From an uncultured Candidatus Saccharibacteria bacterium (GTDB lineage: Bacteria; Patescibacteriota; Minisyncoccia; Phycocordibacterales; UBA918): 64,000 bases of DNA. The notes below the pieces were generated by a model. It was not told where the DNA came from. It ran no database searches and saw nothing but the letters and a program-made list of their open reading frames with translations. Location of the stretch: the NCBI GenBank assembly GCA_964350985.1, contig CAYGLK010000001.1, positions 228,528-292,527 of the forward strand. Direction: 5' to 3'. The stretch's first letter is position 1, and the number at the start of each line of letters is the position of its first letter. Below, one piece after another: positions 4,329 through 40,276 of this stretch. A program made the position numbers and the translations under genes.

Positions 4329-4922
4329 TCAAAGTTTTGTAGATTTCTTTTTAATAATCTGTAAAACTAGGAGCAGAACTAAACTATCAAAAAGGAATAA
4401 GTAGATTGGATAAGCTACTTCATAAAAAGCTAATGTCTCAATAGCAAATAAGCTTAAGAAACCAGAAACTGTAGCCATAATCCAAGCAAATGGAGTTTCA
4501 CTATCAGGGTCTTTATAACTCTTCATTATGGTTGGAAGTCCAAAAGCAAAGTCAGCCAGAATTGCACAAATTAAAGCCAAAATTGGCATATCTAATGTGA
4601 TCCATAAAATTAAACCAAATATTCCAAGACCAAAGAAAAAACCATCTGACTTAGAAGATTGCCAAACGCCAGAACCTCTAATCAATGAAAATAATACAAT
4701 CAGAAGACAAGCCAAGGTATTGGCTGCAACAATAGTTGCTAACCAAGTACTTCCCTCTGCATACATGGCGGATGCACCTAGTCCTGTTATAAAACTCCAA
4801 CCTAGCCAACTCAGTATGTGAGGCCGGGCTCTTTTAGTGTAAATATCTCTGATGTAAGGAACTACACCAATTAAGATAGCCAAAGACGAAAGTACTCCAA
4901 AAATTGCCGAATCAATAATCAC
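4329..4922 (-). CDS. polytopic membrane protein, unknown function
   Basis: 197 aa, about 6 hydrophobic segments. Confidence 0.4.
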   Translation of the reverse strand: MIIDSAIFGVLSSLAILIGVVPYIRDIYTKRARPHILSWLGWSFITGLGASAMYAEGSTWLATIVAANTLACLLIVLFSLIRGSGVWQSSKSDGFFFGLGIFGLILWITLDMPILALICAILADFAFGLPTIMKSYKDPDSETPFAWIMATVSGFLSLFAIETLAFYEVAYPIYLFLFDSLVLLLVLQIIKKKSTKL

Positions 4923-4950
4923 ATTTGTAAGTATACTCTAACTTTAAAGC

Positions 4951-5030
4951 AAAAGAAAAACGCCCGAAGGCGTTTTTCTTTATGGAGATTAGATGTTAAT
5001 CGCAAGAGTAGGGCTCCAACACGGGGCTGA
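4951..5030. repeat. 80-bp direct repeat copy 1 (contains bidirectional terminator hairpin cgcccgaaggcg + T-run)
   Basis: about 95% identical to 6091-6171; aaaagaaaaacgcccgaaggcgtttttctttatggagattagatgtt..agggctccaacacggggctga. Confidence 0.8.
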
Positions 5031-5102
5031 TACTTGCTGAGGGTATGTTAAGAGTACGATGTTGCCTGCAAACGTACTGTCCGGCTGAAGCCTGGGTTTT
5101 TT

Positions 5103-5135
5103 AGATATAGAAAAACCCCGGTTATTAAGCCGGGG
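5103..5135 (-). terminator. rho-independent terminator for the 5182-5892 gene
   Basis: ccccggcttaataaccgggg hairpin followed by T-run on the minus strand. Confidence 0.5.
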
Positions 5136-5181
5136 GTTACAATCGTAGTATTGGAGTAGATACCAGACTACCTGGTGCTAC

Positions 5182-5892
5182 TTAAGGACCTACGTTCTCC
5201 TTATTTTCAAAAATTGCTTCCGCGGACCACCCTCTATCCCAGAAGTTCATGGGGTAGTTGTCTCCTGTCTCCTCGAGGAGTTTTTGGCAAACCCGAGGAT
5301 CAGGGTTGGTGAGACGTTCCCTTATAACCACGAGCGCATCAAGCAGCACTGAATCATGCTGCGCGATGATTGCCAGTTCCCACACTTCATGGGAATGCTT
5401 GACCCTTGTTATAAGGGTTGGGATGAAAGGGTCACCTGTAGTGTCCCAAGGGTGCTTTGCCTCCGTCTCGAGTAAAATCTCTGACGCTTGGCGATGGTGC
5501 CAAAAGTGACGACCGATGTCCCCTGTGTTGTTCACGGCGAATGATGTTCGTGCCCCTTCGGCACTTACCTCAAACTCTCCCCACTCCGCCATTTTTTTTA
5601 TTGTTATGCAAGAGTTCAGAACCCAAACAACAAGGGTATCTCCCTTGAAGGAGATGCCGTCCGTGCCGAAGCTGTCCGTGTGACTGCGGCTGAACTCGAT
5701 GGGTGTATCATCGATCCATGCCTGTAAGGCTCTTCGGCATTCGGTGACATCCTCCTCACTTTCAAGTGGGGCAGTCGCGCACACACTGCCCGAAATCGCT
5801 TTGAAGAGATTTCGGGGGTCCGGCTTGCTTTTGAAAAAAACTTTCATTTGTTCCTCCCCACCCATCACTCGCATCAGAATTGATGCTGTCAA
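5182..5892 (-). CDS. hypothetical protein, GC-rich cargo gene
   Basis: 236 aa, about 50% GC versus about 38% flanks; Trp/His-rich; no family recognised; bracketed by 80-bp direct repeats. Confidence 0.5.
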   Translation of the reverse strand: MTASILMRVMGGEEQMKVFFKSKPDPRNLFKAISGSVCATAPLESEEDVTECRRALQAWIDDTPIEFSRSHTDSFGTDGISFKGDTLVVWVLNSCITIKKMAEWGEFEVSAEGARTSFAVNNTGDIGRHFWHHRQASEILLETEAKHPWDTTGDPFIPTLITRVKHSHEVWELAIIAQHDSVLLDALVVIRERLTNPDPRVCQKLLEETGDNYPMNFWDRGWSAEAIFENKENVGP

Positions 5893-6090
5893 TGTAGGTG
5901 TCCTGTATTCAGGACTTTATCTTATATAGACACATATAAAACAAAGTCCCAAATACAGAATTATAGAGAACACTGGTCAGAATTTTTTTAGCGTTTATAT
6001 AAAGAACGCTATATATATTGTATCATAAATATAGTCTCATGTCAAACATCGCGGCGCTAGATTCAACATTTAATGTCAATATTTAAACCA

Positions 6091-6171
6091 AAAGAAAAAA
6101 CGCCCGAAGGCGTTTTTTCTTTATGGAGATTAGATGTTCATCGCTAGAGTAGGGCTCCAACACGGGGCTGA
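6091..6171. repeat. 80-bp direct repeat copy 2
   Basis: copy of 4951-5030; overlaps the 3' end (last about 14 codons) of the 6130-6543 ORF. Confidence 0.8.
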
Positions 6172-6543
6172 GGCACTCCACGGCTGTGTTCCCTGCTTCT
6201 CATAGAGATGTCGGGCGTAGGCCATGTTCTCTTCGATCTTGTCTAAGTTGAGGTTCATAGAAATCGCTGTCTTCTCGTGGTAACGCTTGTTGATTTGCAT
6301 TACCCCAGTATCTGCTGGGTCAACCACGCCTTTCAGCACACTTCCATCCTCTAGTGTATGTCGAAACGTCGATTCACATCGAGCGATCTGGATCATCACT
6401 GGAATATCCTTGAAGTATGAACGAACAACTTGTTCGGTATCTACTACTGTTCTTGAAGTTTCCTCCACTAACGTACCGGTATTCTTGATCTGACCATAGG
6501 CCGCGTCTACGGGAATCGTTGATGAGATTGATGTCATCGACAA
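6130..6543 (-). CDS. small lytic transglycosylase-like (SLT domain) protein with N-terminal signal/TM
   Basis: catalytic-looking ARCES(T) plus GVMQIN motif typical of SLT/goose-type lysozyme fold; 137 aa. Confidence 0.45.
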   Translation of the reverse strand: MSMTSISSTIPVDAAYGQIKNTGTLVEETSRTVVDTEQVVRSYFKDIPVMIQIARCESTFRHTLEDGSVLKGVVDPADTGVMQINKRYHEKTAISMNLNLDKIEENMAYARHLYEKQGTQPWSASAPCWSPTLAMNI

Positions 6544-6692
6544 AACCGCAATGATTACGGTCGATAAAATAAGCCAATTGTCTTAACTAACAAATGTCAG
6601 CACCTAAGCTGACAACCGCAAAATGATATCACACATTACGGATATTTATGAGTATAGCATACTTTTGACTTACTGTCAATGTAGTACTGTAT

Positions 6693-7541
6693 CTATTTGC
6701 CTAATTTATCCTTAATATAAGCCATTCCACCGTATAATCCACCTTCATCTCTAAAGGCTGCTTTGGTAATAAATGGACTCTCAACAAACTCCCCAAGGGC
6801 TTCAACAGTGTATTTTCGGATTGCGTCAATTGGGATATTTGGGTCACCCATTATCATAGATCCGCCAAGTACAATCGCTTCAGGAGACCAATATAGGATA
6901 CTGTTACGCAGACCTTGAGCTAAGTAGCCTGCTAGTTCGTCCCAAACCAGATCTTCTTGAGGAATTTCGTATGGCTTCATACCTACTCTCGCCTCCAGTC
7001 CAGCGCCTGATACTAAGTTCTCCAAAGTAGGGTTAACATCTTCTCCTAAGATAGTACGGTCAATATCTAGTATCTGGTGTCCTGGCTCAAAGCCTGAAGT
7101 GGAGACGTCAATTTTACCGCACTCAATTTTTACTCCACCTACCCCAGTGCTAATGGTGTGATAAACAACGATGTCCATTCCCTTCCCGGCACCATAGACA
7201 GCTTCTCCAAGTCCAGCCAAAGCTGCATCGTTTTCCAAGTAAACAGGTACTTTAAAATGTTTATTCAATCTACCAGTGATAGATTTTTGTATCCAGTCTC
7301 TCAAGGTCGGGTCGTTTTCTGTACCAGTACCCTCTTCGTTTAGTCGTCCTCTAACACCTCCAGCAATAGTTTCGATTTTGGTTTCTGTCTTTAAGCCCTC
7401 TATATGTTTAATGATGGCTTCAATACCCTTATCAAAAGATTTAGGTGTTGGAAAAGAAGTATGGTCAGTAAAAACCTGTAAGTCTTCAGTTACTGCTACT
7501 CGGGTTTTTGTTCCACCAATATCAAAGACTGCGTAACTCAT
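6693..7541 (-). CDS. ROK family sugar kinase (glucokinase-like)
   Basis: N-terminal DIGGTKTR ATPase motif, ASKHA sugar-kinase length. Confidence 0.65.
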   Translation of the reverse strand: MSYAVFDIGGTKTRVAVTEDLQVFTDHTSFPTPKSFDKGIEAIIKHIEGLKTETKIETIAGGVRGRLNEEGTGTENDPTLRDWIQKSITGRLNKHFKVPVYLENDAALAGLGEAVYGAGKGMDIVVYHTISTGVGGVKIECGKIDVSTSGFEPGHQILDIDRTILGEDVNPTLENLVSGAGLEARVGMKPYEIPQEDLVWDELAGYLAQGLRNSILYWSPEAIVLGGSMIMGDPNIPIDAIRKYTVEALGEFVESPFITKAAFRDEGGLYGGMAYIKDKLGK

Positions 7542-8794
7542 ATGTTTAATATTTCTTTAGTCTTGTCCTTATAGAGTTCTACATTGGGTTGGTCAAAAGC
7601 ATTTACCCCTAGTAAGTGAGCGGTATACATTATTTCTCGTAGTCTCATTGCCATAAAGACACCTAAAGAGTACGGAAGAGCCTCTTCAAAAATCGTCGCT
7701 CGGTAAGGTAAGTTCTTTTCCTGATAGGCTGCTATCACTCCACCATATAAAGCAGTTGATATTTCTTCGATCGAATAGCCTTTAAGATTTTTTGCTAGTC
7801 GGTTACTGCGAGCTATTTTTATATCAACAACAGCATCATCAAAAGTAACAAAGTCAGTCAGAGTGTCCGGAACTCCACTCATATATAGCTGTCCAACTGA
7901 ATGTAACTCTACAGGAGTTGAGATAGTTGGGACCATGGCGGTCTTTAAAGCTTGGCCTTTGAGGTTTTTTTCTTTACCAAGGCTTTCAGCAAATAGCTGA
8001 CGGTACCAACGTCCTAGTTTTTCTAGTCGTGGTTCAAAAGCAAAGAAGTTGTAGTGTGGGTATTTTAGTTGATGGTAAATAGCAAGACGAGACGCACTTT
8101 CAGCTACCAAGGTCTCATACTGCTCTTCTGAGGCTTCTAGGTAGCCGCTGATGAAGTCATCTACGTCATGGCCAAGAAGTGTCAGTGGTACCAATCCAAC
8201 TGCTGTTGCGACGGAGTAACGTCCACCAATTACTTCTGGCATTGAGATCTCAAGTACCCCTTTCTTCTTTCCGTAAGTCATCAGATCTGTCTTTGGGTTC
8301 CCAATAAAAATCGTTTGTTTGTAGATGTCAGCTTTAAAACGTTCTTCTAGAGCATCTAGAAAGACAGCTGCATTAGCTAATGTCTCTGTCGTCTGTCCAG
8401 ACTTACTAATGACGCAGACTGCTAAATCTTTAACTTTCTTTACACTGTGTAGTTCTTTCAATAGTTGATCAATCTTATATGAAGAGACAGTGTCAAGAAT
8501 AGAAAGTTTGACCTTACCGGTATCTAAAACTGAATGGATCGCTTCAACACCCAAACTAGATCCTCCAATTCCAATTAGGACTAGGTGTTTAATATTTTTA
8601 AACTGATTTTTGATCTTATTTAATTCTTCATGTACAGCAAAATCCCGACAGTGATAGAGAGAGTACTCAGGGACTTTTTTGTCATCATTCTTCTTAGCTA
8701 ACTCTATTTCTGTTCGGTAATTTTTTAGTTTATTCTGATTTGTCTTCAGTAATTTTTCAGAGACTCGTTTGTCATCAAAATAAGTAATAAACAT
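7538..8794 (-). CDS. pgi: glucose-6-phosphate isomerase
   Basis: LIGIGGSSLG and GGRYSVATAVG signatures. Confidence 0.75.
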   Translation of the reverse strand: MFITYFDDKRVSEKLLKTNQNKLKNYRTEIELAKKNDDKKVPEYSLYHCRDFAVHEELNKIKNQFKNIKHLVLIGIGGSSLGVEAIHSVLDTGKVKLSILDTVSSYKIDQLLKELHSVKKVKDLAVCVISKSGQTTETLANAAVFLDALEERFKADIYKQTIFIGNPKTDLMTYGKKKGVLEISMPEVIGGRYSVATAVGLVPLTLLGHDVDDFISGYLEASEEQYETLVAESASRLAIYHQLKYPHYNFFAFEPRLEKLGRWYRQLFAESLGKEKNLKGQALKTAMVPTISTPVELHSVGQLYMSGVPDTLTDFVTFDDAVVDIKIARSNRLAKNLKGYSIEEISTALYGGVIAAYQEKNLPYRATIFEEALPYSLGVFMAMRLREIMYTAHLLGVNAFDQPNVELYKDKTKEILNI

Positions 8795-11690: not shown

Positions 11691-11704
11691 CCCAAAAAGT
11701 TTAA

Positions 11705-11743
11705 GCACAAAAAACGCCAGGCTTTGCCTGGCGTTTTTTGTGC
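11705..11743. terminator. perfect 17-bp-stem palindromic bidirectional terminator, copy 1
   Basis: gcacaaaaaacgccagg-ctttg-cctggcgttttttgtgc; identical 41-mer recurs at 13788-13828. Confidence 0.8.
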
Positions 11744-11752
11744 TCTAAATAA

Positions 11753-13738
11753 CTACCACCAAATTCTGTTCCCTAACGTCTTTTTCATCTCAGCTCTGGT
11801 CATTTCTCCGAAGTAGCCGGTTGCTGGAGTGATTCCATGAATTATCTGATAGTTTGATAACGCTTTAGCTGTCTCTGGACCAAAGTAACCAGTTGCTCCA
11901 GCAGGAATAGAATAGCTTAGCGAAATTAGTAGTTCTTGTAAGGCAGTGACATCAGGACCTTCATCTTCTAGGGTTAAGTCTCGGATAGGCAAAGGTACTG
12001 GAGTGAGGTCAATGCCGGTCAGGTCTCTATATCTAGCTATAATAAGAGCAAGATCTTGTCTGAGTCGATCAAGTGTAATACTAAGTGAGATCGGGGTTGC
12101 TGGAATATTAAATTTTTCTTCAAGTTCAACGGCCGCTTCGATGTTTCCGTTGTCTCTGAGATTTTTTGCTCTGCCTTTAGCTGAAGTGCCACTGCTGCCA
12201 CTTGACTCTTTAGCTTCACGAGTGACTGTTCTGGTGGTTGTCACTGTACTAGAAGCTGCGACAACTGGACTGCCATTAAAATCAACTACTGTCCCTGAGT
12301 CAGTGACACTATAGAGTAGTTCATAGACTCCTGGATCTTCTAATACTTCTCCTGTGACTTCAATATCGTCATTGAGGTTACCGTCTTTGATGTCATTTGC
12401 TGAGACTGTGCCGAAGTCAATGGTAAAGCTGTCATTAAAATCTATTTCTACATCAAGTGGAGTCACTGTGAGATTTGGGGGGTTGTCGATGAGGGTAAGT
12501 TCGTTACCACTGACATAGCCAGAAATATTTGAGTCGGTGATGAAGACATTGCCTTCGGTTCCGGAGTTTGTTGAAGCGGTAACCCCTCTAGAATAAGAGT
12601 TTGCAAAGACCGTTGAATTTATGACCGTAACGTCTCCAGAAGCACCAGAGTAACCGTATGAACTAACGTAATTACCTATTGTTGAGTTGGTTACAATAAC
12701 ATCCCCACCGTCGTTACCGTAGGTAAAAGACGAAACACCTAAGGTCACTTCTGAGTCGGTGACAGTAACATCACCAGCATCTATACCTCCTGCTGAATAT
12801 ATGTAGCCATCTACATACGAATCGTTAACAACAATAGTCCCTCCATTTCCAGAATAACCAACAGATTGTACTTGTCCTCCAATATCAGAGCCGTAGATGC
12901 TCACAGAACCTGAATTAAGTGAACCGTCTGATTCTACATAATCAGTTACGTTAGAGTCAGTGATTTCGATATCTCCAGAGTCACCACCAGTAGCTTCAGA
13001 TTGAACTAACTCAGTTACTTCAGAATCAGAAATATCGATGTCTCCGCTACTTAAAATACCAGACGCTCTTACAGAACCTGTAACAGTTGAATTATTGGAA
13101 ATGGTGATGTTGCCAGAATTGCTAGTATCTGAAACTGAAGCTATGGAACTATTAATTATTGAGTTTTCAATTACTACATTACCAGAATCATCGCTACCTA
13201 ATGATGAAACGTTGGAAACTACACTAGAAGATACACTGGAATCAATAACAGTAATATCACCAGCTGTACCAGCACTTGCTCCAACAATTGAGTATACCCC
13301 ACCTCCAATATTTGAATTTTGAATATATATCTCTCCAGCATTACTGTCATAAGAGTATGAACTAACATAAGCCCCAACTTCTGTATTTATCACCTCAATG
13401 TCTCCAGAATTTCCTGTAGCGTTATATGATTGTACAAAACCACTAATATTCACAACATCAGTGACTACTATATTATGTCCTCCAGTACTTTGAACATTTC
13501 CATTAATACTATAAAGTCCTTGTCCATCAATAGTGATATTATTGGCAGTAATAATACAGTTACCGGCAGTGGTGGTAGATAGTTGGTAGATGGTATCTGC
13601 TTGGTCTAAATCAGTACTACAGTCTGTGACAGCAGCCACAGCTTTAGGTAGTTCCCTGTTCCAGATAAGTGCGTAGACAAATATAACTATGATAGTTGAA
13701 CTACCTAATCGAAGAATAGTCTTTTTCATATTTATCAT
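11753..13738 (-). CDS. secreted parallel-beta-helix repeat surface protein with C-terminal peptidoglycan-binding (PG_binding_1-like) repeats
   Basis: N-terminal signal/TM; more than 15 degenerate repeats of the GDI/VTVxDSxV type; C-terminus has two ...TGYFGxxTxxA... motifs. Confidence 0.6.
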   Translation of the reverse strand: MINMKKTILRLGSSTIIVIFVYALIWNRELPKAVAAVTDCSTDLDQADTIYQLSTTTAGNCIITANNITIDGQGLYSINGNVQSTGGHNIVVTDVVNISGFVQSYNATGNSGDIEVINTEVGAYVSSYSYDSNAGEIYIQNSNIGGGVYSIVGASAGTAGDITVIDSSVSSSVVSNVSSLGSDDSGNVVIENSIINSSIASVSDTSNSGNITISNNSTVTGSVRASGILSSGDIDISDSEVTELVQSEATGGDSGDIEITDSNVTDYVESDGSLNSGSVSIYGSDIGGQVQSVGYSGNGGTIVVNDSYVDGYIYSAGGIDAGDVTVTDSEVTLGVSSFTYGNDGGDVIVTNSTIGNYVSSYGYSGASGDVTVINSTVFANSYSRGVTASTNSGTEGNVFITDSNISGYVSGNELTLIDNPPNLTVTPLDVEIDFNDSFTIDFGTVSANDIKDGNLNDDIEVTGEVLEDPGVYELLYSVTDSGTVVDFNGSPVVAASSTVTTTRTVTREAKESSGSSGTSAKGRAKNLRDNGNIEAAVELEEKFNIPATPISLSITLDRLRQDLALIIARYRDLTGIDLTPVPLPIRDLTLEDEGPDVTALQELLISLSYSIPAGATGYFGPETAKALSNYQIIHGITPATGYFGEMTRAEMKKTLGNRIWW

Positions 13739-13787
13739 TATAACTTTTTTTCTAGTTTTTCTAACAACTTTTCACCAAAATTAAAAT

Positions 13788-13828
13788 ACAAAAAACGCCA
13801 GGCTTTGCCTGGCGTTTTTTGTGCTCTA
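13788..13828. terminator. palindromic terminator, copy 2
   Basis: 41 nt identical to 11705-11745. Confidence 0.8.
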
Positions 13829-13837
13829 CTTCCCTAC

Positions 13838-19951: not shown

Positions 19952-20257
19952 ATGCAAAACAGCAAGGTGTCCTTGCTCAAAAAGTTTCTTGCTGACTACA
20001 GTCTGCCGATTGCGGCAGCCTTCGTCATCGCGGTGGTTAGCATGATCGCCGCCTGTACCGTCTCCGGCACGAAAGAGTGTGGCTATGAACTCGTTGTCAC
20101 AAGAGTTCAGACAAGCAGCGCTCTGGGACATCAATTGCCGGAGCAGGCCTACCTCGTTCTTGAGCGACCAATTATCGTTCAGATGGAGGGCACTTCGGAG
20201 GGTCAGAGGTTCGTCCTGAATGGCTGCAATGTTCTGCCGCTGCCTGAAGAGCGCTGA
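19952..20257 (+). CDS. small putative lipoprotein/secreted protein (GC-rich islet)
   Basis: signal-like N-terminus with Cys (IAACTVSG); about 52% GC; antisense ORF 19931-20134 judged spurious. Confidence 0.35.
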   Translation: MQNSKVSLLKKFLADYSLPIAAAFVIAVVSMIAACTVSGTKECGYELVVTRVQTSSALGHQLPEQAYLVLERPIIVQMEGTSEGQRFVLNGCNVLPLPEER

Positions 20258-25024: not shown

Positions 25025-25061
25025 TTTTACCGGTTTTGGCTGTGTCGACCAACCAGCCCAC

Positions 25062-25145
25062 GATCGCCGCTCTCCACGAGCGGCGGTCTTTCTTTTTTTC
25101 TTTTAAATATTAGTCACAAATATTGACTTTAGGTATAATTTATGT
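25062..25145 (+). promoter_or_regulatory. cassette junction module R1: terminator hairpin (cgccgctc-tccac-gagcggcg + T-run) fused to promoter-like ttgact..tataat
   Basis: near-identical copies at 26115-26197 and a degenerate copy at 27106-27185. Confidence 0.7.
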
Positions 25146-25222
25146 TATTATCTCAAAAGATCTGTATCTAACAACAGCTATGCTTATCTCATTCTATCTC
25201 TGCACTTTGACAAGGAATAAAG

Positions 25223-26086
25223 ATGAAAAATATAAATTGGAACGTTCTTTGGGACATTCTCTGCGAAGACATCAGTAGCAAGAATCTGAGGGGTCCAGAA
25301 ATTGTCAATTGGCAAAAGGTCTGCTTGTTTCACGCGTCTCTCCAGGCCATCGGAGTAATGTTTCTCTTTGCTTTAGGGGAAGCAAGCTATATCCCGGTAA
25401 TTGCAGGCCTGTTGTTTCTCTTAGCTGGCATAGCACCTACTGTGCTGGCATTTGCTTTGGATCTTTCGACAGTCGTGTCGGAGAGAGTACCTTCTTTTTT
25501 GGCACGAGCCAAAATGACTATCGGTCAATGGCGTCAGCAAAAGCGAACAGCTAAACATTTTGAGACACTCGGACAAAGAAAAATCAGTCCATATGTCTCA
25601 ATGGAGGGATCAATTGATCTGACGTCCATGTCGCAGTTGTTGGCAATTTGTCGCTCAGTTGTCCAGCAGCATTTCCGGTCACTTACTCTGGAGGAGCAGA
25701 TTTCCCTGATCGAAGTCTCGCACAAGTTTAAGGAAGGAAAGAAAGAAGTGATTTCGGTCACTGTCACCTTCCTTTATGAACGCAGTTTGAAAGTCCGTCG
25801 TGACGGCGTCGATCGTGATGTGCTAGTGCACTCCGGTCACACTATTCAGCTTTTTCCAGACGGGACAAGGATCGTTGACATTGAGCACGTGCTCTCGCAA
25901 GGCACCAGGATGCTGAGCGGTTTAGACGATGTACGAGCGCACGTCTTGAACGTAGCTCACCGACTGCTGGATAATGACATCGACGTCGGTTCGGCCGAAA
26001 AAGATGCGTCGTCCGTGGTGATGTTGGCTTCAATGCCAACTGGCCAAAGTCGGAAGAGCTCATCTTCAGATTCTGTTCTTGAGTAG
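25223..26086 (+). CDS. 2-TM protein with about 190-aa soluble C-terminal domain, paralog A
   Basis: about 52% GC; shares a block (VTVTFLYERSLKVRRDGVDRDVLVHSGH) with paralog B (VTVVTFVYRRCEQTVEDGVSHDRLVASAH). Confidence 0.5.
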   Translation: MKNINWNVLWDILCEDISSKNLRGPEIVNWQKVCLFHASLQAIGVMFLFALGEASYIPVIAGLLFLLAGIAPTVLAFALDLSTVVSERVPSFLARAKMTIGQWRQQKRTAKHFETLGQRKISPYVSMEGSIDLTSMSQLLAICRSVVQQHFRSLTLEEQISLIEVSHKFKEGKKEVISVTVTFLYERSLKVRRDGVDRDVLVHSGHTIQLFPDGTRIVDIEHVLSQGTRMLSGLDDVRAHVLNVAHRLLDNDIDVGSAEKDASSVVMLASMPTGQSRKSSSSDSVLE

Positions 26087-26114
26087 CCGGCACCGCTGGC
26101 TACTCACCACCATT

Positions 26115-26197
26115 GATCGCCGCTCTCCACGAGCGGCGGTCTTTCTTTTTTTCTTTTAAATATTAGTCGCAAATATTGACTTTAGGTATAATTTATG
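26115..26197 (+). promoter_or_regulatory. cassette junction module R2
   Basis: about 97% identical to R1. Confidence 0.7.
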
Positions 26198-26281
26198 CTA
26201 TAAACTAAATAGCAATTGTATTAAACCAGCACCCCGCTGTTTTTTGAATCGATCTTTAACAACAAACCTAGGAGGTGTCAG

Positions 26282-27070
26282 ATGAGTATCACTGGCGATT
26301 TTTATGAGGAGAGGTCAGACGACCTGGACACAAAGGAAGGAGGGCTGTTGTTATCGGTTCTTATTCTTTGGTTTGGCGCTGGAGTTGCTGCATGGCTAAG
26401 CTCTGATCCTGTGACTGGGTTTCAGACGGTCCTTCATGTTGTGAGCAGTTTCCTCTTCTTTCTCCCGTTCATCCCACTCATTGTTACTATACCGGCCGAT
26501 TTCTTGGTCGGTGTGCGTAATCATATCGACGGATGGTGGAATGACATCCAAGGATTCCTTGGGTCACGTCGGAGAAAAAAAATGGAATCTAGTACGCTTG
26601 AGCGGCTTGATCCAAGCAAGATTGAGCCGCACATTTCGAGTCCCTTGCCGGACCTGGGCAACGCTACTCACCTCAAGGAGATCTGTGTTGAGATTGTCCT
26701 GGATCAGTTGGGACGTAAGCTGGTCAGGGATGAGGAGGTTTATGTCCTCAGTTCTGAGCCGAAACCAGGTGGCAAAGTGACTGTTGTCACTTTTGTCTAC
26801 CGTCGGTGCGAACAGACGGTAGAGGACGGCGTCAGTCACGACCGTTTGGTTGCGTCGGCACATGTGGTCAGGCTTTTGCTCAACAGCTTGGCTAAGTGTG
26901 TCGACATATCTTGGGTCACTTCACTCACTCATAAGGAATTGGGTGATCTGGAGGATCCGGAGAGCTTTGTGACCAACGTCACCCAGAGGCTGGAAGGAGA
27001 CTTGCTGCCATGTTCGGCTGTACCAGCTACAGTCAGAAGCATGACTTCCAGGATTCCTCTCTCTGAGTGA
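26282..27070 (+). CDS. 2-TM protein, paralog B
   Basis: RBS ggaggtg; same architecture as paralog A and a homologous C-terminal domain. Confidence 0.5.
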   Translation: MSITGDFYEERSDDLDTKEGGLLLSVLILWFGAGVAAWLSSDPVTGFQTVLHVVSSFLFFLPFIPLIVTIPADFLVGVRNHIDGWWNDIQGFLGSRRRKKMESSTLERLDPSKIEPHISSPLPDLGNATHLKEICVEIVLDQLGRKLVRDEEVYVLSSEPKPGGKVTVVTFVYRRCEQTVEDGVSHDRLVASAHVVRLLLNSLAKCVDISWVTSLTHKELGDLEDPESFVTNVTQRLEGDLLPCSAVPATVRSMTSRIPLSE

Positions 27071-27105
27071 TTGCTCTCGTCTTGCGATGCTCGCGCACCG
27101 CCCCC

Positions 27106-27185
27106 GATCGCCGCTCTCCTCGAGCGGCGATTTTCTTTATTTAAATATTGGATGCAAACATTGACTAAATACATATTTTATAATA
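27106..27185 (+). promoter_or_regulatory. cassette junction module R3 (degenerate)
   Basis: gatcgccgctctcctcgagcggcga + T-run + ttgact, diverged from R1/R2. Confidence 0.55.
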
Positions 27186-27314: not shown

Positions 27315-27518
27315 ATGAACCAAAGCTTAAACCACCAACCGACGCTGGATCAGCTGGTTGCAAACGGTGAGCCTTTCCATGGCTTCTACCCGAAGCCGGC
27401 ACCTCAACCGCTGGTTGCAAACGGTGAGCCTTTCCATGGCTTCTACCCGAAGCCAGCGGCTCCGCCACCGGGACAGGATTGCTTCGACTACGTGACCCGC
27501 CCGATATTTGACGAATAG
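27315..27518 (+). CDS. small Pro/Gly-rich peptide with internal 19-aa tandem duplication (LVANGEPFHGFYPKPAxxP x2)
   Basis: 57-bp DNA tandem repeat at 27353-27397 and 27410-27455; GC-rich. Confidence 0.3.
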   Translation: MNQSLNHQPTLDQLVANGEPFHGFYPKPAPQPLVANGEPFHGFYPKPAAPPPGQDCFDYVTRPIFDE

Positions 27519-33968: not shown

Positions 33969-34040
33969 GGTCCCATCGTCTAACGGTCAGGACATCAGGT
34001 TTTCATCCTGGAAATCGGAGTTCGATTCTCCGTGGGATCA
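33969..34040 (+). tRNA. tRNA-Glu (anticodon UUC)
   Basis: hand-folded cloverleaf: acceptor ggtccca/tgggatc, anticodon loop ttTTCat, T-arm cggag-ttcgatt-ctccg; followed by a terminator hairpin gcaccc-gttt-gggtgc + T-run. Confidence 0.75.
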
Positions 34041-34303: not shown

Positions 34304-35143
34304 TCAACGGTTCGGAGTAACTCGCAAAAGCCGCACTGACACAATTTCGTAGTTGATCACCCCAAGGATTGCACCGGTGACGGCGCCAATGATGGCGCTG
34401 CCAAACGAGTATCCAATGACAGCGCCAATCGTTGCATCAACGAAACAGACTGTACGTCGTTGTGAGTGGATGAAGACAAACACACTAACGGCAAATTGGG
34501 AGGTTGCCCGCCACACTTCGCGCCCTCTTGTGATTACAGTTGGCACCGCGCGTTTGATTGCTGGCGGCGACTCTACTGCAGCCTTCTTCAATCCGCGCAA
34601 GGCTGCAACTGTCACAGCGATTGGATTGAATTTGAGAAACAGGCTCTTTCCTGTCTCAACGATAGAACTAAGTAGCTCGTCACGCCTAGCCGGGCTAGCG
34701 TCCTTCTCGGATTGCAAAATCATAGCTATTACACCCCAGGCGTAGAGAACTGCAAACGCTGAAATCCATAGCACGCAATACAACGTGAACAAAATACCCG
34801 ACATAGGAATGTCGTCATTGAAAAACACAAACACTGGGCAGACAAGAGCTGACAAAGAACAAACTGTCGTGACTGTGCCGCCTGCGAATGTTCCGAAGGC
34901 CTTCCACCAAAGCCGATCAGGGCGCCAGGTGATCGTGCTGTGGTATGAGTGAGCAACTCCGGAGCAGAAGTGCCTAAAGTCGATCGCGACGTATGCCGCG
35001 ATACCGCCAGCTAGTGCACCAATGCCCCACAGACTTGATCCATACTCGAATCTTATCGAGATCTCAAGAGCCGTCAATGTGCCGATGAGAGCGCCGAGAG
35101 CACACGCAAAGGCGATCGAAAGCCAACCACTTGTCATCTTCAT
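34304..35143 (-). CDS. polytopic membrane protein, unknown (GC-rich islet, about 53% GC)
   Basis: 279 aa, 6-8 hydrophobic helices; antisense ORFs judged spurious. Confidence 0.45.
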   Translation of the reverse strand: MKMTSGWLSIAFACALGALIGTLTALEISIRFEYGSSLWGIGALAGGIAAYVAIDFRHFCSGVAHSYHSTITWRPDRLWWKAFGTFAGGTVTTVCSLSALVCPVFVFFNDDIPMSGILFTLYCVLWISAFAVLYAWGVIAMILQSEKDASPARRDELLSSIVETGKSLFLKFNPIAVTVAALRGLKKAAVESPPAIKRAVPTVITRGREVWRATSQFAVSVFVFIHSQRRTVCFVDATIGAVIGYSFGSAIIGAVTGAILGVINYEIVSVRLLRVTPNR

Positions 35144-35357
35144 GGTTTCCTCTACTTTTCTTATCTAGGCACATGCCTAGATTTCTATAATTTTATACCA
35201 CACTTAATCTAACCCTTCAATAGCTACGTAATAGTTCGATATCTAGGTGACCGTCATCACATTGTTGTCATGACGATCTTCTGCGCCACCGACGAATGAA
35301 CTCAACGCCGGTGCGTCACCCCCCGCATATTTGCGGATGTTGTTGTTTATTACATCT

Positions 35358-35812
35358 TTTACAATCCGGTTCCAATTCGTACTACATAGGGTCACAGAGG
35401 TAAGAAAATAACCACAAAGCAAATGCTTTGTGGTTATTTTCTTAGCAAAGCAACTTGAGTCGCTTGCGGCCTCTGTGACAGACGGAGACATGTTTTGACT
35501 ATTCCTAATGTCAAAACAACCGAGTCCGGGTAGGTGAGAAATGGGACTGTCACAATTATTTAAAACGTTAAAATTCCACACTTGTTTTACAATCCAGTTT
35601 CAATTCGTACTACATAGGGCCACACAGGTATAAACAAAGGCACTACTTCTTAAGAAGCAGCGTTTTGTTTAATAGAAAGCAAATGACTTTGCTTTCGTAC
35701 CGATGTGATTAGCGGAGCGATCTTTTCTGCTCTTCCCTAAAGCAGAAAAGGAGTGAGCTGGGTGAGAAATGGGCTTGGACCTATTTCGCAAGACTCATTG
35801 AGGTATATTTTG
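35358..35812. repeat. two tandem about 228-bp noncoding units, each with a conserved 46-mer (ttttacaatccRgtTYcaattcgtactacataggg..cacaSaggta) and different hairpins
   Basis: 46-mers at 35358-35403 and 35585-35630; ggtgagaaatggg at 35533 and 35761; terminator-like hairpins aaccacaaagc-aaat-gctttgtggtt and cttcttaagaag. Confidence 0.6.
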
Positions 35813-39676: not shown

Positions 39677-40276
39677 TCAGACCAGGTCTGCGTTGGCGCG
39701 AAGCATTGCTTCGGGCGTGTACTTTCCGCCGGTGATCTCGAAGAGATCTCCGCCAGGCTGAAGCCGCGGCATGAGATGCTCGTAGGTCTTGCCGATGATG
39801 TGCGATTCGGTGACCAGATCGTTGGCAGTGATCACGATCCCGTGCATGCCCAGGTACTGCTCGGGCGAGACCAAGAGTCCAGCGTCGGTGAGTGCGTTCT
39901 GCACGCCGAACTTGATGGTCTGCTCGATGCGGTCCTGCGTCGTGGCTGCCACTTCGAGTGCGGCCATCTTCAGCGGATTGTAGGTATCCGCGTCGCGGAA
40001 AACCATGATCTTGACCGGTGGATTGACCATCCGGACCAACTTGTTCATGCCGCCGGAAATGTCGCTCACGATGACCGGACTGATGTTTCCGAAACGCTCG
40101 CTGATCGGGGCTTCAACCGCACCGATGCGTATGCCGTCGTGGTTCTTGAGACCGATCTGCTGGTCGATGTCACAATCGGTGATATTGGTAACCATGAGAT
40201 CGCCGGCGAACGAGGTGGCAGAAACGCCCGAAATCAGAGCGGCCACAATGAATGTGGCCAGGGTATTCTTTTGCAT
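39677..40276 (-). CDS. secreted protein, unknown (GC-rich island, about 58% GC)
   Basis: signal peptide MQKNTLATFIVAALISGVSATSFA; antisense 39776-40282 ORF judged an artefact of the high GC. Confidence 0.45.
   Translation of the reverse strand: MQKNTLATFIVAALISGVSATSFAGDLMVTNITDCDIDQQIGLKNHDGIRIGAVEAPISERFGNISPVIVSDISGGMNKLVRMVNPPVKIMVFRDADTYNPLKMAALEVAATTQDRIEQTIKFGVQNALTDAGLLVSPEQYLGMHGIVITANDLVTESHIIGKTYEHLMPRLQPGGDLFEITGGKYTPEAMLRANADLV

Follow-up and report, generated by a model that had tools for sequence, protein, structure and literature searches.

How did a single gene of foreign composition come to lie between two copies of another gene's end? In the 64-kb stretch of DNA analysed here (the window), which belongs to a tiny CPR (Paceibacteria) genome, a 1,052-bp segment, referred to below as the cargo, is bracketed by direct repeats, one of which forms the end of a conserved lysozyme-like (SLT-like) gene. 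The genomes of CPR/Patescibacteria are tiny and contain few mobile elements that can be recognised, and gene gain in these bacteria is poorly documented. If the cargo was inserted, the window would offer a clean sequence-level case of gene gain with no transposase or integrase, in which the gene ends and terminators of the neighbours were preserved. A second example lies 6 kb off and was checked against empty sites in relatives. The features of the locus are listed in Table 1.

The repeat pair and the native gene end

The left copy (87 nt) and the right copy (89 nt) were identical at 84 of 90 columns of a gapped alignment. The initial annotation had put the identity of 4951-5030 and 6091-6171 at about 95%, and the gapped alignment of these intervals agreed (76/81). 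Viewed without gaps, the pair fell into a 58-nt block (97%) and a 27-nt block (93%). The differences were three substitutions and two 1-nt indels, and the indels lengthened both hairpin arms together (A5/T5 in the left copy, A6/T6 in the right). Only two copies of the repeat are present in the 64 kb. Shuffled sequences gave no matches (0/100), and no such pair is expected by chance.

Both copies contain a hairpin of the A-tract/GC-stem/U-tract type, with the loop cUUCGg in the sense of the SLT-like gene. The predicted RNA fold was -21.6 kcal/mol (z -7.1) for the right hairpin and -17.5 kcal/mol (z -6.8) for the left, and both folded strongly on either strand, as expected of the bidirectional terminator that had been proposed. 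The right copy was also said to supply the last codons and the stop of the SLT-like gene; this was the case, with SAPCWSPTLAMNI followed by the stop, although the codons number 13 and not about 14. The left copy reads SAPCWSPTLAINI and a stop, ending in LAINI, and no gene precedes it. A conserved Met has been replaced by Ile in the left copy, and comparison with the two closest relatives assigns the derived state at both coding differences to this copy. The left copy is a decaying orphan of the SLT-like gene end.

These relatives are L001 (82% amino acid identity) and L007 (79%). In each, the SLT-like gene has the same coding end and is directly followed by a homologous hairpin, either the same as that in the window or compensatorily changed, and both are present once. 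Because the gene end and terminator occur there once and at the same place, the repeat is native sequence that was duplicated, consistent with the earlier suggestion that it pre-existed as a gene end plus terminator. A second copy of the gene's own end or terminator was found at none of about 85 related SLT loci, in a scan whose probe was off by up to about 50 nt at some loci (stop codon in the query). As there was no direct second copy at any of these loci, a general att site was ruled out. No second SLT copy or fragment was found among the relatives compared. The identity of L001 to the window collapses at about position 6091, i.e., at the repeat, and the cargo has no counterpart in L001.

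The SLT-like gene has about 2,000 homologs in Paceibacteria. Its earlier assignment to the SLT domain holds only as a sub-threshold resemblance (SLT_3, E = 0.033, below the cut-off). Weak profile matches to SLT_3 and SLT were obtained for 18/20 and 14/20 homologs, respectively, and the family profile matches C-type lysozymes at E 0.02 or weaker. The C-E-S motif is invariant in the family. The family-invariant C-terminal residues C128 and W129 fall inside the repeat, and one intact copy must therefore be kept. The high GC3 of the gene raised the idea of a xenologous replacement of the whole gene. This was ruled out as the source of the repeat, since the gene and its ROK/PGI neighbours have the same closest relative and the codon style is alike in the orphan and live copies.

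Table 1. Features of the repeat-bracketed locus (positions in the window)
Feature	Position	Strand	Basis or remark
197-aa multi-pass membrane protein gene, downstream of left copy	4329..4922	-	Neighbour comparison
Left repeat copy	4944..5030	-	22-29 bp upstream of 197-aa gene start; alignment, fold
Second terminator hairpin, left copy	about 4951-4982	-	Fold
Orphan SLT 3' end, left copy	4989-5030	-	Alignment
Cargo, 1,052-bp unique segment between repeats	5031..6082	-	Predicted to be one autonomous transcription unit
Hairpin facing cargo terminator	5079-5097	+	Sequence reading
Cargo terminator, CCCCGG-loop-CCGGGG and U-run	5106..5135	-	Hairpin 5135-5116; sequence reading
Cargo CDS, 221 aa, ATG at 5847	5182..5847	-	Rare uncharacterised family
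Shine-Dalgarno GGAGG, 5 nt upstream of ATG 5847	5853..5857	-	Read in ggggaggaacaaATG
Imperfect palindrome TAGCGTTTATATAAAGAACGCTA	5989..6011		Directly downstream of -10, spans expected transcription start
Promoter-like site: TTGACA, 17 nt, TACAAT; TG before -10	6017..6045	-	Consensus match, 11/12
Right (functional) repeat copy	6083..6171	-	Alignment, fold, single copy in L001/L007
Bidirectional intrinsic-terminator hairpin, right copy	about 6091-6124	-	Fold
SLT-like gene end in right copy	6130-6171	-	Alignment
Lysozyme-like (SLT-like) gene, 137 aa, conserved; end duplicated	6130..6543	-	Homolog searches

The cargo gene and its protein family

The cargo is compositionally foreign. Its ORF has a GC content of 0.51 and a GC3 of 0.56, compared with window ORF means of 0.41 +/- 0.05 and 0.35 +/- 0.11 (z of about 2). 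The initial annotation had described it as a GC-rich ORF with its own terminator and, upstream, an imperfect palindrome, and all three were recovered. The terminator folds moderately better than shuffles (z -1.7). The palindrome TAGCGTTTATATAAAGAACGCTA folds at -6.4 kcal/mol (z -2.7) and may act as an operator-like site or form a hairpin at the 5' end of the mRNA. With its promoter, RBS, CDS and terminator, the segment is predicted to be a complete, self-sufficient unit. The start given for the gene had to be revised. The mechanical ORF, 5182-5892(-), reaches a TTG at 5892 and encodes 236 aa, but all homologs start with MK(V)xF, aligned to M16, which corresponds to 221 aa from the ATG. At 136 aa, the public gene call falls short of this.

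The protein had been called an ORFan, which proved incorrect. Exhaustive HMMER analysis identified about 10 homologs among 1.8 billion representative proteins, none of them annotated, and these form a very rare but real family comprising P0242 (44% identity, E = 6e-38) and about nine remote members. A 2,632-aa NACHT/CARD protein in the HMMER list (P0245) was rejected as spurious, as it was not matched by the family profile. A word-indexed search with the cargo protein returned the window's own gene alone. No match was found in Pfam, PHROG, PADLOC, NCBIfam or with a PDB sequence profile, nor by tblastn against phage and plasmid sequences, and the family was not found in the IMG/VR and JGI locus searches. 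An AF2 model based on the family alignment gave a pLDDT of 78 and a pTM of 0.74, i.e., a confident predicted fold for a family with no detectable relatives of known function. The ten contigs of about 1.1 kb that carry the closest homolog were inspected for flanking repeats and circularity. They break at polymorphic positions, and their ends share only the 8-nt GGCGGGGA. No cargo homolog adjoined an SLT gene at the SLT loci examined. The cargo gene brings this uncharacterised protein family to notice.

Origin of the arrangement

The initial annotation had argued against a transposase-type target-site duplication, and the evidence agrees. The duplication spans 87-89 bp and includes a gene end, compared with 2-15 bp for a transposon target duplication. 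No terminal inverted repeats join the cargo ends, and no transposase, integrase or defence-system domains were detected in the cargo (Pfam, PHROG, PADLOC, NCBIfam). Six-frame reading of the cargo flanks revealed no coding remnants. No integrase-like ORF was found in the 64 kb by tblastn with one Paceibacterial integrase (L009), a search of low sensitivity. On reading, the repeat contained no attC pair (GTTRRRY/RYYYAAC); its hairpin is a perfect A-tract/GC/U-tract terminator.

An empty site, with the SLT-like gene directly upstream of the 197-aa gene, had been predicted and was present in no relative examined. A scan of genome contigs via the 197-aa gene gave no such site. The closest homologs of this gene (73% identity) have unrelated upstream neighbours, and neither it nor the MFS gene was near the SLT gene at any of 88 SLT loci. 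The downstream neighbour of the SLT gene that is conserved in the clade encodes an EVE domain, and the window lacks this gene. As judged from gene order, the 197-aa gene is not the ancestral neighbour of the SLT-like gene. No strict empty site was found, since every relative has other genes downstream. With the EVE-domain neighbour missing, the downstream synteny of this genome is rearranged in any case, and events at the locus may have come in more than one order. The search of JGI metagenomes with an ultra-conserved 31-mer of the leader returned one 1.3-kb contig, ending inside the SLT gene. No donor with the SLT-repeat-cargo arrangement was found among the genomes and metagenomes searched.

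At the second locus, a 661-aa gene (11753-13738) lies between L27 and PPIase, with a 61-nt copy of the terminator native to L27/PPIase on either side. The empty site was present in 39/42 relatives, in which L27 and PPIase are at most 302 bp apart, with one terminator and no 661-aa homolog. The single L27/PPIase terminator in L053 is homologous to the window's hairpin. The joint contains a 4-nt microhomology, GTAG. This comparison of sequences shows, independently of the SLT locus, that a gene was inserted at the second locus with duplication of a native terminator. A third locus, 25052-27142, has the same architecture, with a terminator-plus-promoter segment in three copies. The repeats of the three loci are three unrelated sequences, which counts against one site-specific recombinase.

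For the SLT locus, the reading we favour, with about an even chance of being right, is a homology-anchored, integrase-independent insertion behind the SLT-like gene, by which the resident gene end was displaced. A transcription unit of one gene, acquired horizontally and composed of promoter, 5' UTR with the palindrome, RBS, 221-aa CDS and terminator, would have landed directly behind the SLT-like gene, with the resident gene end and terminator as the homologous anchor. The unit may have arrived on linear DNA of a close relative, in which the SLT end and terminator were followed by the cargo. The joint would be homologous on the SLT side and illegitimate on the other (homology-facilitated illegitimate recombination, HFIR), and the resident 3' end would be pushed downstream. 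Alternatively, a circularised fragment with one 87-89-bp copy may have been integrated by a single crossover. Either route would leave repeat-cargo-repeat. The gene-attached copy would stay under selection and keep the invariant Cys/Trp and the conserved Met, while the coding part of the displaced copy would decay, with the copy still terminating transcription ahead of the next gene. The conserved homologous anchor on one side and the orphaned former 3' end on the other are as in HFIR. No clear microhomology could be scored flush at the 5030/5031 joint; TCAGC recurs 10 nt away. We infer a homology-mediated capture of the cargo, and with it the recombination route and the donor. Counting against this explanation are the failure to find the exact empty site or a donor and the rearranged downstream gene order; moreover, the copies may have been identical at formation, and an in-situ duplication fits equally well.

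Replicative template switching at the palindromic terminator (break-induced or MMBIR-like) is a mechanism that we consider rather unlikely. A fork or nascent 3' end would stall at the perfect hairpin, the cargo would be copied from another DNA molecule, and re-annealing to the chromosome upstream of the exit would duplicate 60-90 bp around the hairpin. Strong, near-perfect palindromic terminators are central to all three repeat-bracketed units, and re-priming fits the duplicated lengths (61-98 bp) and outer borders that are fuzzy and bear no relation to function. A single identical sequence can account for both copies, with both coding differences derived in the orphan, and the microhomology at the second locus is also consistent with template switching. 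There is no direct evidence for it, however, and microhomology at 5030/5031 is not scorable without a donor sequence. Template switching is known chiefly from amplifications and rearrangements and not, to our knowledge, from the capture of foreign genes in bacteria. Direct repeats that rebuild the 3' end of a target gene are a classic signature of integrative elements. Here, the repeats restore the 3' end of the SLT-like gene and the GC content of the cargo is atypical, so they could be the attL and attR of a remnant or satellite of a site-specific element that brought a replacement 3' end, with its integrase lost or the element mobilised in trans (cis-mobilisable). We regard this as decidedly improbable, given the absence of an integrase from the cargo and, by the weak tblastn test, from the 64 kb, the flanks free of coding remnants and the lack of a second repeat copy at the site in the relatives scanned. 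The three unrelated repeat sequences at loci of like build and the absence of the cargo family from phage, plasmid and IMG/VR collections also argue against it.

That no insertion took place is very unlikely. The arrangement would then be old and vertically inherited, e.g., as the relic of an SLT tandem duplication whose second copy was mostly deleted. The missing strict empty site and the variable SLT downstream region in all relatives would be compatible with this; however, neither a second SLT copy nor a fragment of one was found in the relatives, identity between the repeats is about 94% whereas orthologous gene ends diverge far more between species, and the cargo is foreign in composition with so few, distant homologs. 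An assembly artefact, in which a foreign 1-kb fragment was spliced into the contig at the repeat, seems barely credible. The source is a metagenome-assembled 528-kb contig and the GC content of the cargo is foreign, but 5-6 positions distinguish the copies, a compensatory indel pair among them, whereas a collapsed graph repeat would yield identical copies. Both junctions are unique sequence, and the promoter-RBS-CDS-terminator layout is coherent, with neighbours in the same orientation.

Generality and comparison with known systems

Duplicative insertion at native palindromic terminators could offer this streamlined CPR lineage a general way to gain genes that needs no recombinase, with the hairpin directing the landing and the units spreading as minimal cassettes, but we think this broader proposal unlikely. 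If it were true, terminator duplication would hand the newcomer and its neighbour a terminator each (at 25052-27142 also a promoter), and single-gene units flanked by repeats could then be excised and passed on among closely related bacteria. The cargo would count among these travelling genes, and its protein family would be a new one. If the pattern were genome-wide, recent acquisitions in MAGs could be recognised simply by a duplicated native terminator.

HFIR-type displacement leaves orphaned 3' ends in T6SS/Rhs loci (PMC5361080). As in the Rhs/CDI/T6SS orphan arrays, a conserved upstream gene would be the anchor, with a new module joined to it and its old 3' end orphaned downstream. In contrast to these arrays, the anchor gene here does not encode a polymorphic toxin and its 3' end is unchanged. 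The gene added behind it is unrelated and has a predicted promoter of its own, and the duplicated piece is only 13 codons and a terminator. The likeness to HFIR lies in the sequence arrangement.

Prophages e14 and 21 integrate in the 3' end of icd and bring a substitute gene end. The locus resembles these and CIMEs in its repeats of tens of bp over a gene 3' end, the intact gene and the slightly diverged pseudo-end at the far side of the insert. It differs in having no integrase, excisionase, phage or conjugation genes and an insert of only about 1 kb; moreover, the site is not reused in relatives, and the other loci duplicate unrelated sequences. Integron cassettes and CALIN are similar as small promoter-poor or single-gene units with hairpin-forming repeats of about 60-120 bp between them, the closest likeness being at 25052-27142. 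Unlike theirs, the repeats here are ordinary native-gene terminators with no RYYYAAC/GTTRRRY core sites, no integron integrase was found, and the repeat includes coding sequence of the neighbour.

Phage morons (Hendrix/Juhala) are reportedly autonomous extra transcription units. The host here is a bacterial chromosome, unlike that of morons, and a flanking duplication of host sequence is no defining moron feature. The cargo is moron-like in being a single gene of atypical base composition, with its own promoter and terminator predicted from consensus matches, inserted between genes of conserved order.

A duplicated gene end at the SLT-like gene

The direct repeat described in the initial annotation was recovered by sequence reading, a repeat finder and gapped alignment, with 76/81 positions identical between 4951-5030 and 6091-6171. 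The repeat extended further, to 4944-5030 (87 nt) and 6083-6171 (89 nt), with 84/90 columns identical. A pattern search matched exactly two copies over the 64 kb and had no match in any of 100 shuffled versions. The copies differ at five or six positions, with one substitution at the outer edge and two in the coding part. Two single-base indels extend both hairpin arms together (A5/T5 in the left copy, A6/T6 in the right), and the palindrome of each copy thus stays perfect. Given these differences, the compensatory indel pair included, an assembly artefact is unlikely.

The annotated bidirectional terminator was confirmed by folding. The hairpins of both copies, on either strand, gave -21.6 and -17.5 kcal/mol (z about -7), far better than the shuffled controls. 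Read along the SLT-like gene, the hairpin has a cUUCGg loop flanked by an A-tract and a U-tract, and is a textbook bidirectional intrinsic terminator. A simple terminator scan overlooked it because the A/U pairs were counted as stem. The right copy supplies the end and the stop of the SLT-like gene, as had been proposed, although it contributes 13 codons and not about 14. The two coding differences are both derived in the left copy when compared with the relatives, one being a Met to Ile change where the relatives have Met. The left copy is thus a non-functional orphan, and has accumulated changes after the duplication event.

The proteins of the window map to one public contig of 528 kb. About 2,000 homologs of the SLT-like protein (137 aa) were found, and their names indicate Parcubacteria, Paceibacteria and Kaiserbacteria MAGs. 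Its SLT_3 match is sub-threshold (E = 0.033) and spans 76/89 profile positions. Weak profile matches were present among 20 homologs (SLT_3 in 18, SLT in 14), and the family profile matched C-type lysozymes with E of 0.02 or weaker. The evidence for the label "SLT-like" is therefore coherent but sub-threshold. Among the residues that are invariant in the family are C56-E57-S58 and, within the repeat, C128 and W129; a protein lacking the last 13 codons would very probably be inactive.

The upstream synteny is kept in the relatives (L9-PPIase-L27-122aa-BrkB-RNaseT-LOG-PGI-ROK-SLT). In the closest two, L001 (82% amino acid identity) and L007 (79%), the gene ends in the same way and a homologous hairpin comes directly after it, in a single copy. 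The hairpin stem and loop are identical to the window in L001, and the stem is changed compensatorily in L007. Sliding identity between the window and L001 was 0.6-0.98 across PGI, ROK, the leader and SLT, and collapsed exactly at about 6091. No second copy of a locus's own gene end or terminator was found in about 85 related loci, only self-complementary hairpin hits, and the scenario in which all relatives carry both copies came out negative. The comparison supports the earlier proposal that the repeat pre-existed, and indicates that it is native sequence, the gene end and terminator of the SLT-like gene.

Downstream, the conserved neighbour of SLT in the clade is an EVE-domain gene: it is adjacent in 28/81 loci, and in most of the other 36 loci that have one the distance is 0.5-1.1 kb. 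It is absent from the whole window, and the SLT terminator thus marks a synteny break in this genome. The homologs of the 197-aa membrane protein gene downstream of the left copy (4329-4922(-)) share 73% identity or less and have unrelated upstream neighbours; none lies near an SLT locus of the relatives. The suggested empty site, with SLT directly upstream of this gene, was not found among the relatives, owing to the lack of close ones. In another lineage (L009:1-5900), an island encoding a tyrosine integrase, FtsK-gamma, an HTH protein and a type III restriction-modification methylase stands in front of the 197-aa gene homolog.

The cargo gene and its family

The 1,052-bp segment between the copies is a single minus-strand transcription unit. 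The gene was annotated as GC-rich with its own terminator, and this was upheld: its GC is 0.51 and its GC3 0.56, compared to 0.41 +/- 0.05 and 0.35 +/- 0.11 for 68 window ORFs, and it is followed by a hairpin. The imperfect palindrome upstream was also confirmed. The 236-aa reading of ORF 5182-5892 was revised, as the family N-terminus MK(V)xF aligns to M16 of the mechanical ORF and places the start at 5847, in agreement with the GGAGG site. The public call (P0001) is a 136-aa fragment from an internal ATG.

Features of the SLT-like gene, the cargo and the two further repeat-bracketed loci (window coordinates)
Feature	Position	Strand	Details
Promoter of SLT-like leader	6679-6651	-	
Right repeat copy, coding part		-	last 13 codons and stop of gene 6130-6543(-); SAPCWSPTLAMNI, stop
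Left repeat copy, coding part			reads SAPCWSPTLAINI, stop; nothing homologous in front
Cargo promoter-like site	6045-6017	-	TTGACA-17-TACAAT, upstream TG, 11/12 consensus matches
Palindrome	5989-6011		at expected transcript start
Cargo 5' UTR		-	about 160 nt
Ribosome-binding site		-	GGAGG, 5 nt before ATG at 5847
Cargo CDS	5847 to 5182	-	221 aa
Cargo terminator hairpin	5135-5106	-	CCCCGG/CCGGGG and U-run
Hairpin facing cargo terminator	5079-5097	+	
Locus 2 repeat	11696-11756 and 13777-13837		61 nt, 87% identical; hairpin ACAAAAAACGCCAGGC-AAAG-GCCTGGCGTTTTTTGT at centre
Locus 3	25052-27142		three copies of terminator and promoter segment; 98 nt, 94% identical, third 79%

A word-indexed protein search with the cargo returned only the window's own gene. 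An exhaustive HMMER search of 1.8 billion representatives identified P0242 as the best match (223 aa, 44% identity, E = 6e-38), as well as about nine remote members of 188-273 aa, and the cargo is therefore not strictly the ORFan it was taken for. The invariant positions of the family alignment are W, D, S, G-x-R-x-S, N-x-T-G, D, F and T. A 2,632-aa NACHT/CARD protein in the HMMER list was discarded as spurious, as the family profile does not match it. The family members had no match in Pfam, NCBIfam, PHROGs, PADLOC or PDB sequences, and nothing was found in the phage, plasmid, IMG/VR and JGI collections. AlphaFold with the family alignment gave a confident alpha/beta model (pLDDT 78, pTM 0.74), predicted to comprise one N-terminal strand, helices, a five-strand antiparallel meander, a helix-flanked strand and a helical C-terminal third. 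The leading Foldseek resemblances, S-adenosylmethionine-decarboxylase-like and START-like, had a TM of about 0.2 and led to no assignment.

The remote homologs are lone genes with long upstream spacers on ordinary, GC-richer bacterial contigs; the gene is GC-richer than its surroundings, and no integrase was found nearby. The P0242 gene was present only on ten contigs of 1.0-1.13 kb (L092-L101, SRR254905xx; ten runs from a single study). There, too, it is GC-rich and has a promoter-like site, a structured leader and a terminator, with AT-richer flanks on both sides. The cargo is thus an accessory gene of rare and sporadic occurrence, and its composition and distribution suggest that it was acquired and is not native. 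In all ten contigs the breaks fall at about the same polymorphic positions of the flanks. At the right end there is a CCCCGCC...GGCGGGG hairpin, and the left end has GGCGGGGA again; the contigs may represent the same kind of repeat-flanked unit as the cargo.

Further repeat-bracketed loci and possible routes of insertion

A whole-window repeat search identified the repeat-cargo-repeat architecture twice more. The locus 2 repeat is the native L27/PPIase bidirectional terminator, around a 661-aa gene (11753-13738(-)) that encodes a PG_binding_1 (peptidoglycan-binding) repeat protein and has a 38-nt promoter-bearing upstream piece. PPIase and L27 are convergent and <=302 bp apart in 39/42 relatives, none of which has the 661-aa homolog. 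The aligned spacers of the relatives hold a single terminator, that of L053 being a compensatory variant of the window hairpin. In these relatives, locus 2 is a truly empty site for an insertion that duplicates a terminator, and it lies 6 kb from the SLT repeat. In three relatives, PPIase and L27 are separated by other small genes (L020:3365-4076, L041:3029-3864 and L044:1720-2460), which differ from one another, each with two unrelated terminators and no duplication. The PPIase-L27 intergenic terminator is an insertion hot spot across the clade, with duplication seen only in the window's genome.

At locus 3, the copies are spaced 1053 and 991 bp apart and bracket two GC-rich tandem genes (25223-26086 and 26282-27070) without a Pfam match. 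The two proteins are only 30% identical, and conservation is far higher in the intergenic DNA than in the genes. Three other GC-rich ORFs, 19952-20257(+), 34304-35143(-) and 39677-40276(-), had a GC of 0.52-0.58 and a GC3 of up to 0.77, with no Pfam match and no bracketing repeats; the second lies 260 bp from the window's only tRNA (33969-34040). Also noted were a 64-nt direct repeat (35352-35415 and 35580-35643; 81% identical, with the copies 228 bp apart) and, inside a small ORF, a tandem duplication of 57 nt at 27320-27433 (74% identical).

The three loci have in common a strong palindromic terminator, a duplication of 60-100 bp, and outer borders that ignore functional boundaries; the SLT-repeat border falls 13 codons inside the gene. 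A transposon was discounted: neither a transposase nor terminal inverted repeats are present, and the target duplications made by transposases are far shorter than 87-89 bp. The initial annotation was thus correct in setting aside a transposase-type target-site duplication. The repeat has no attC core sites on sequence reading, which argues against an integron cassette.

The best-supported reading is that insertion was homology-dependent and occurred without a dedicated recombinase. A linear fragment from a close relative would carry the SLT end, terminator and cargo, with the SLT side anchored by homology and the other side joined illegitimately, following the scheme of homology-facilitated illegitimate recombination (HFIR). 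Alternatively, a circularised fragment with one repeat copy would integrate by a single crossover. HFIR was proposed for T6SS and Rhs loci, where it would explain orphaned 3' ends and immunity genes that lie behind conserved 5' regions (PMC5361080). It accounts for the arbitrary position of the border, for the orphan copy and for the functional copy being intact. A replicative template switch in situ, at the hairpin, would explain the same facts, and fits the finding that the two copies may have started out identical. A third and disfavoured option is an integrative element that has decayed or is mobilised in trans: no integrase is encoded within the cargo, tblastn of the window with a Paceibacterial integrase, a test of low sensitivity, returned nothing, and the three loci have repeats of unrelated sequence, which makes one site-specific recombinase unlikely as a common cause. 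Insertions deleting the invariant C-terminus of a conserved gene, or its terminator, would be eliminated by selection, which explains why only end- and terminator-preserving products are seen.

The architecture joins known parts. The cargo resembles phage "morons" in being an autonomous gene, and the orphan 3' end resembles HFIR products. At icd, the direct repeats flanking e14 and phage 21 restore the 3' end of the gene, as do those in the window. Less familiar is the way these parts are combined, with no recombinase, recurrence at native terminators and a CPR genome as the setting. A general terminator-directed mode of gene gain, yielding minimal repeat-flanked cassettes, seems improbable to us.

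Composition and leader of the SLT-like gene

The GC3 of the SLT-like gene (6130-6543) was 0.52, compared to 0.32 in the ROK and PGI neighbours (6693-8794). The corresponding difference in 76 relatives was 0.019 +/- 0.061, placing the window at a z of about 3. The closest relative of the gene is the same as that of its neighbours.

The 5' leader (6544-6660(-)) is 92-98% identical to L001, compared to only 60-85% for the flanking coding DNA, and had no match in Rfam. Its core, UAAGACAAUUGGCUUAUUUUAUC, is kept in nearly all of the 88 related loci. There are two hairpins with clear covariation (for one pair, UA 23, CG 17, UG 10, GU 5 and AU 3), one of which is terminator-like (6614-6595). The leader lies in front of a putative cell-wall hydrolase gene and is a candidate for a new cis-regulatory RNA in Paceibacteria.
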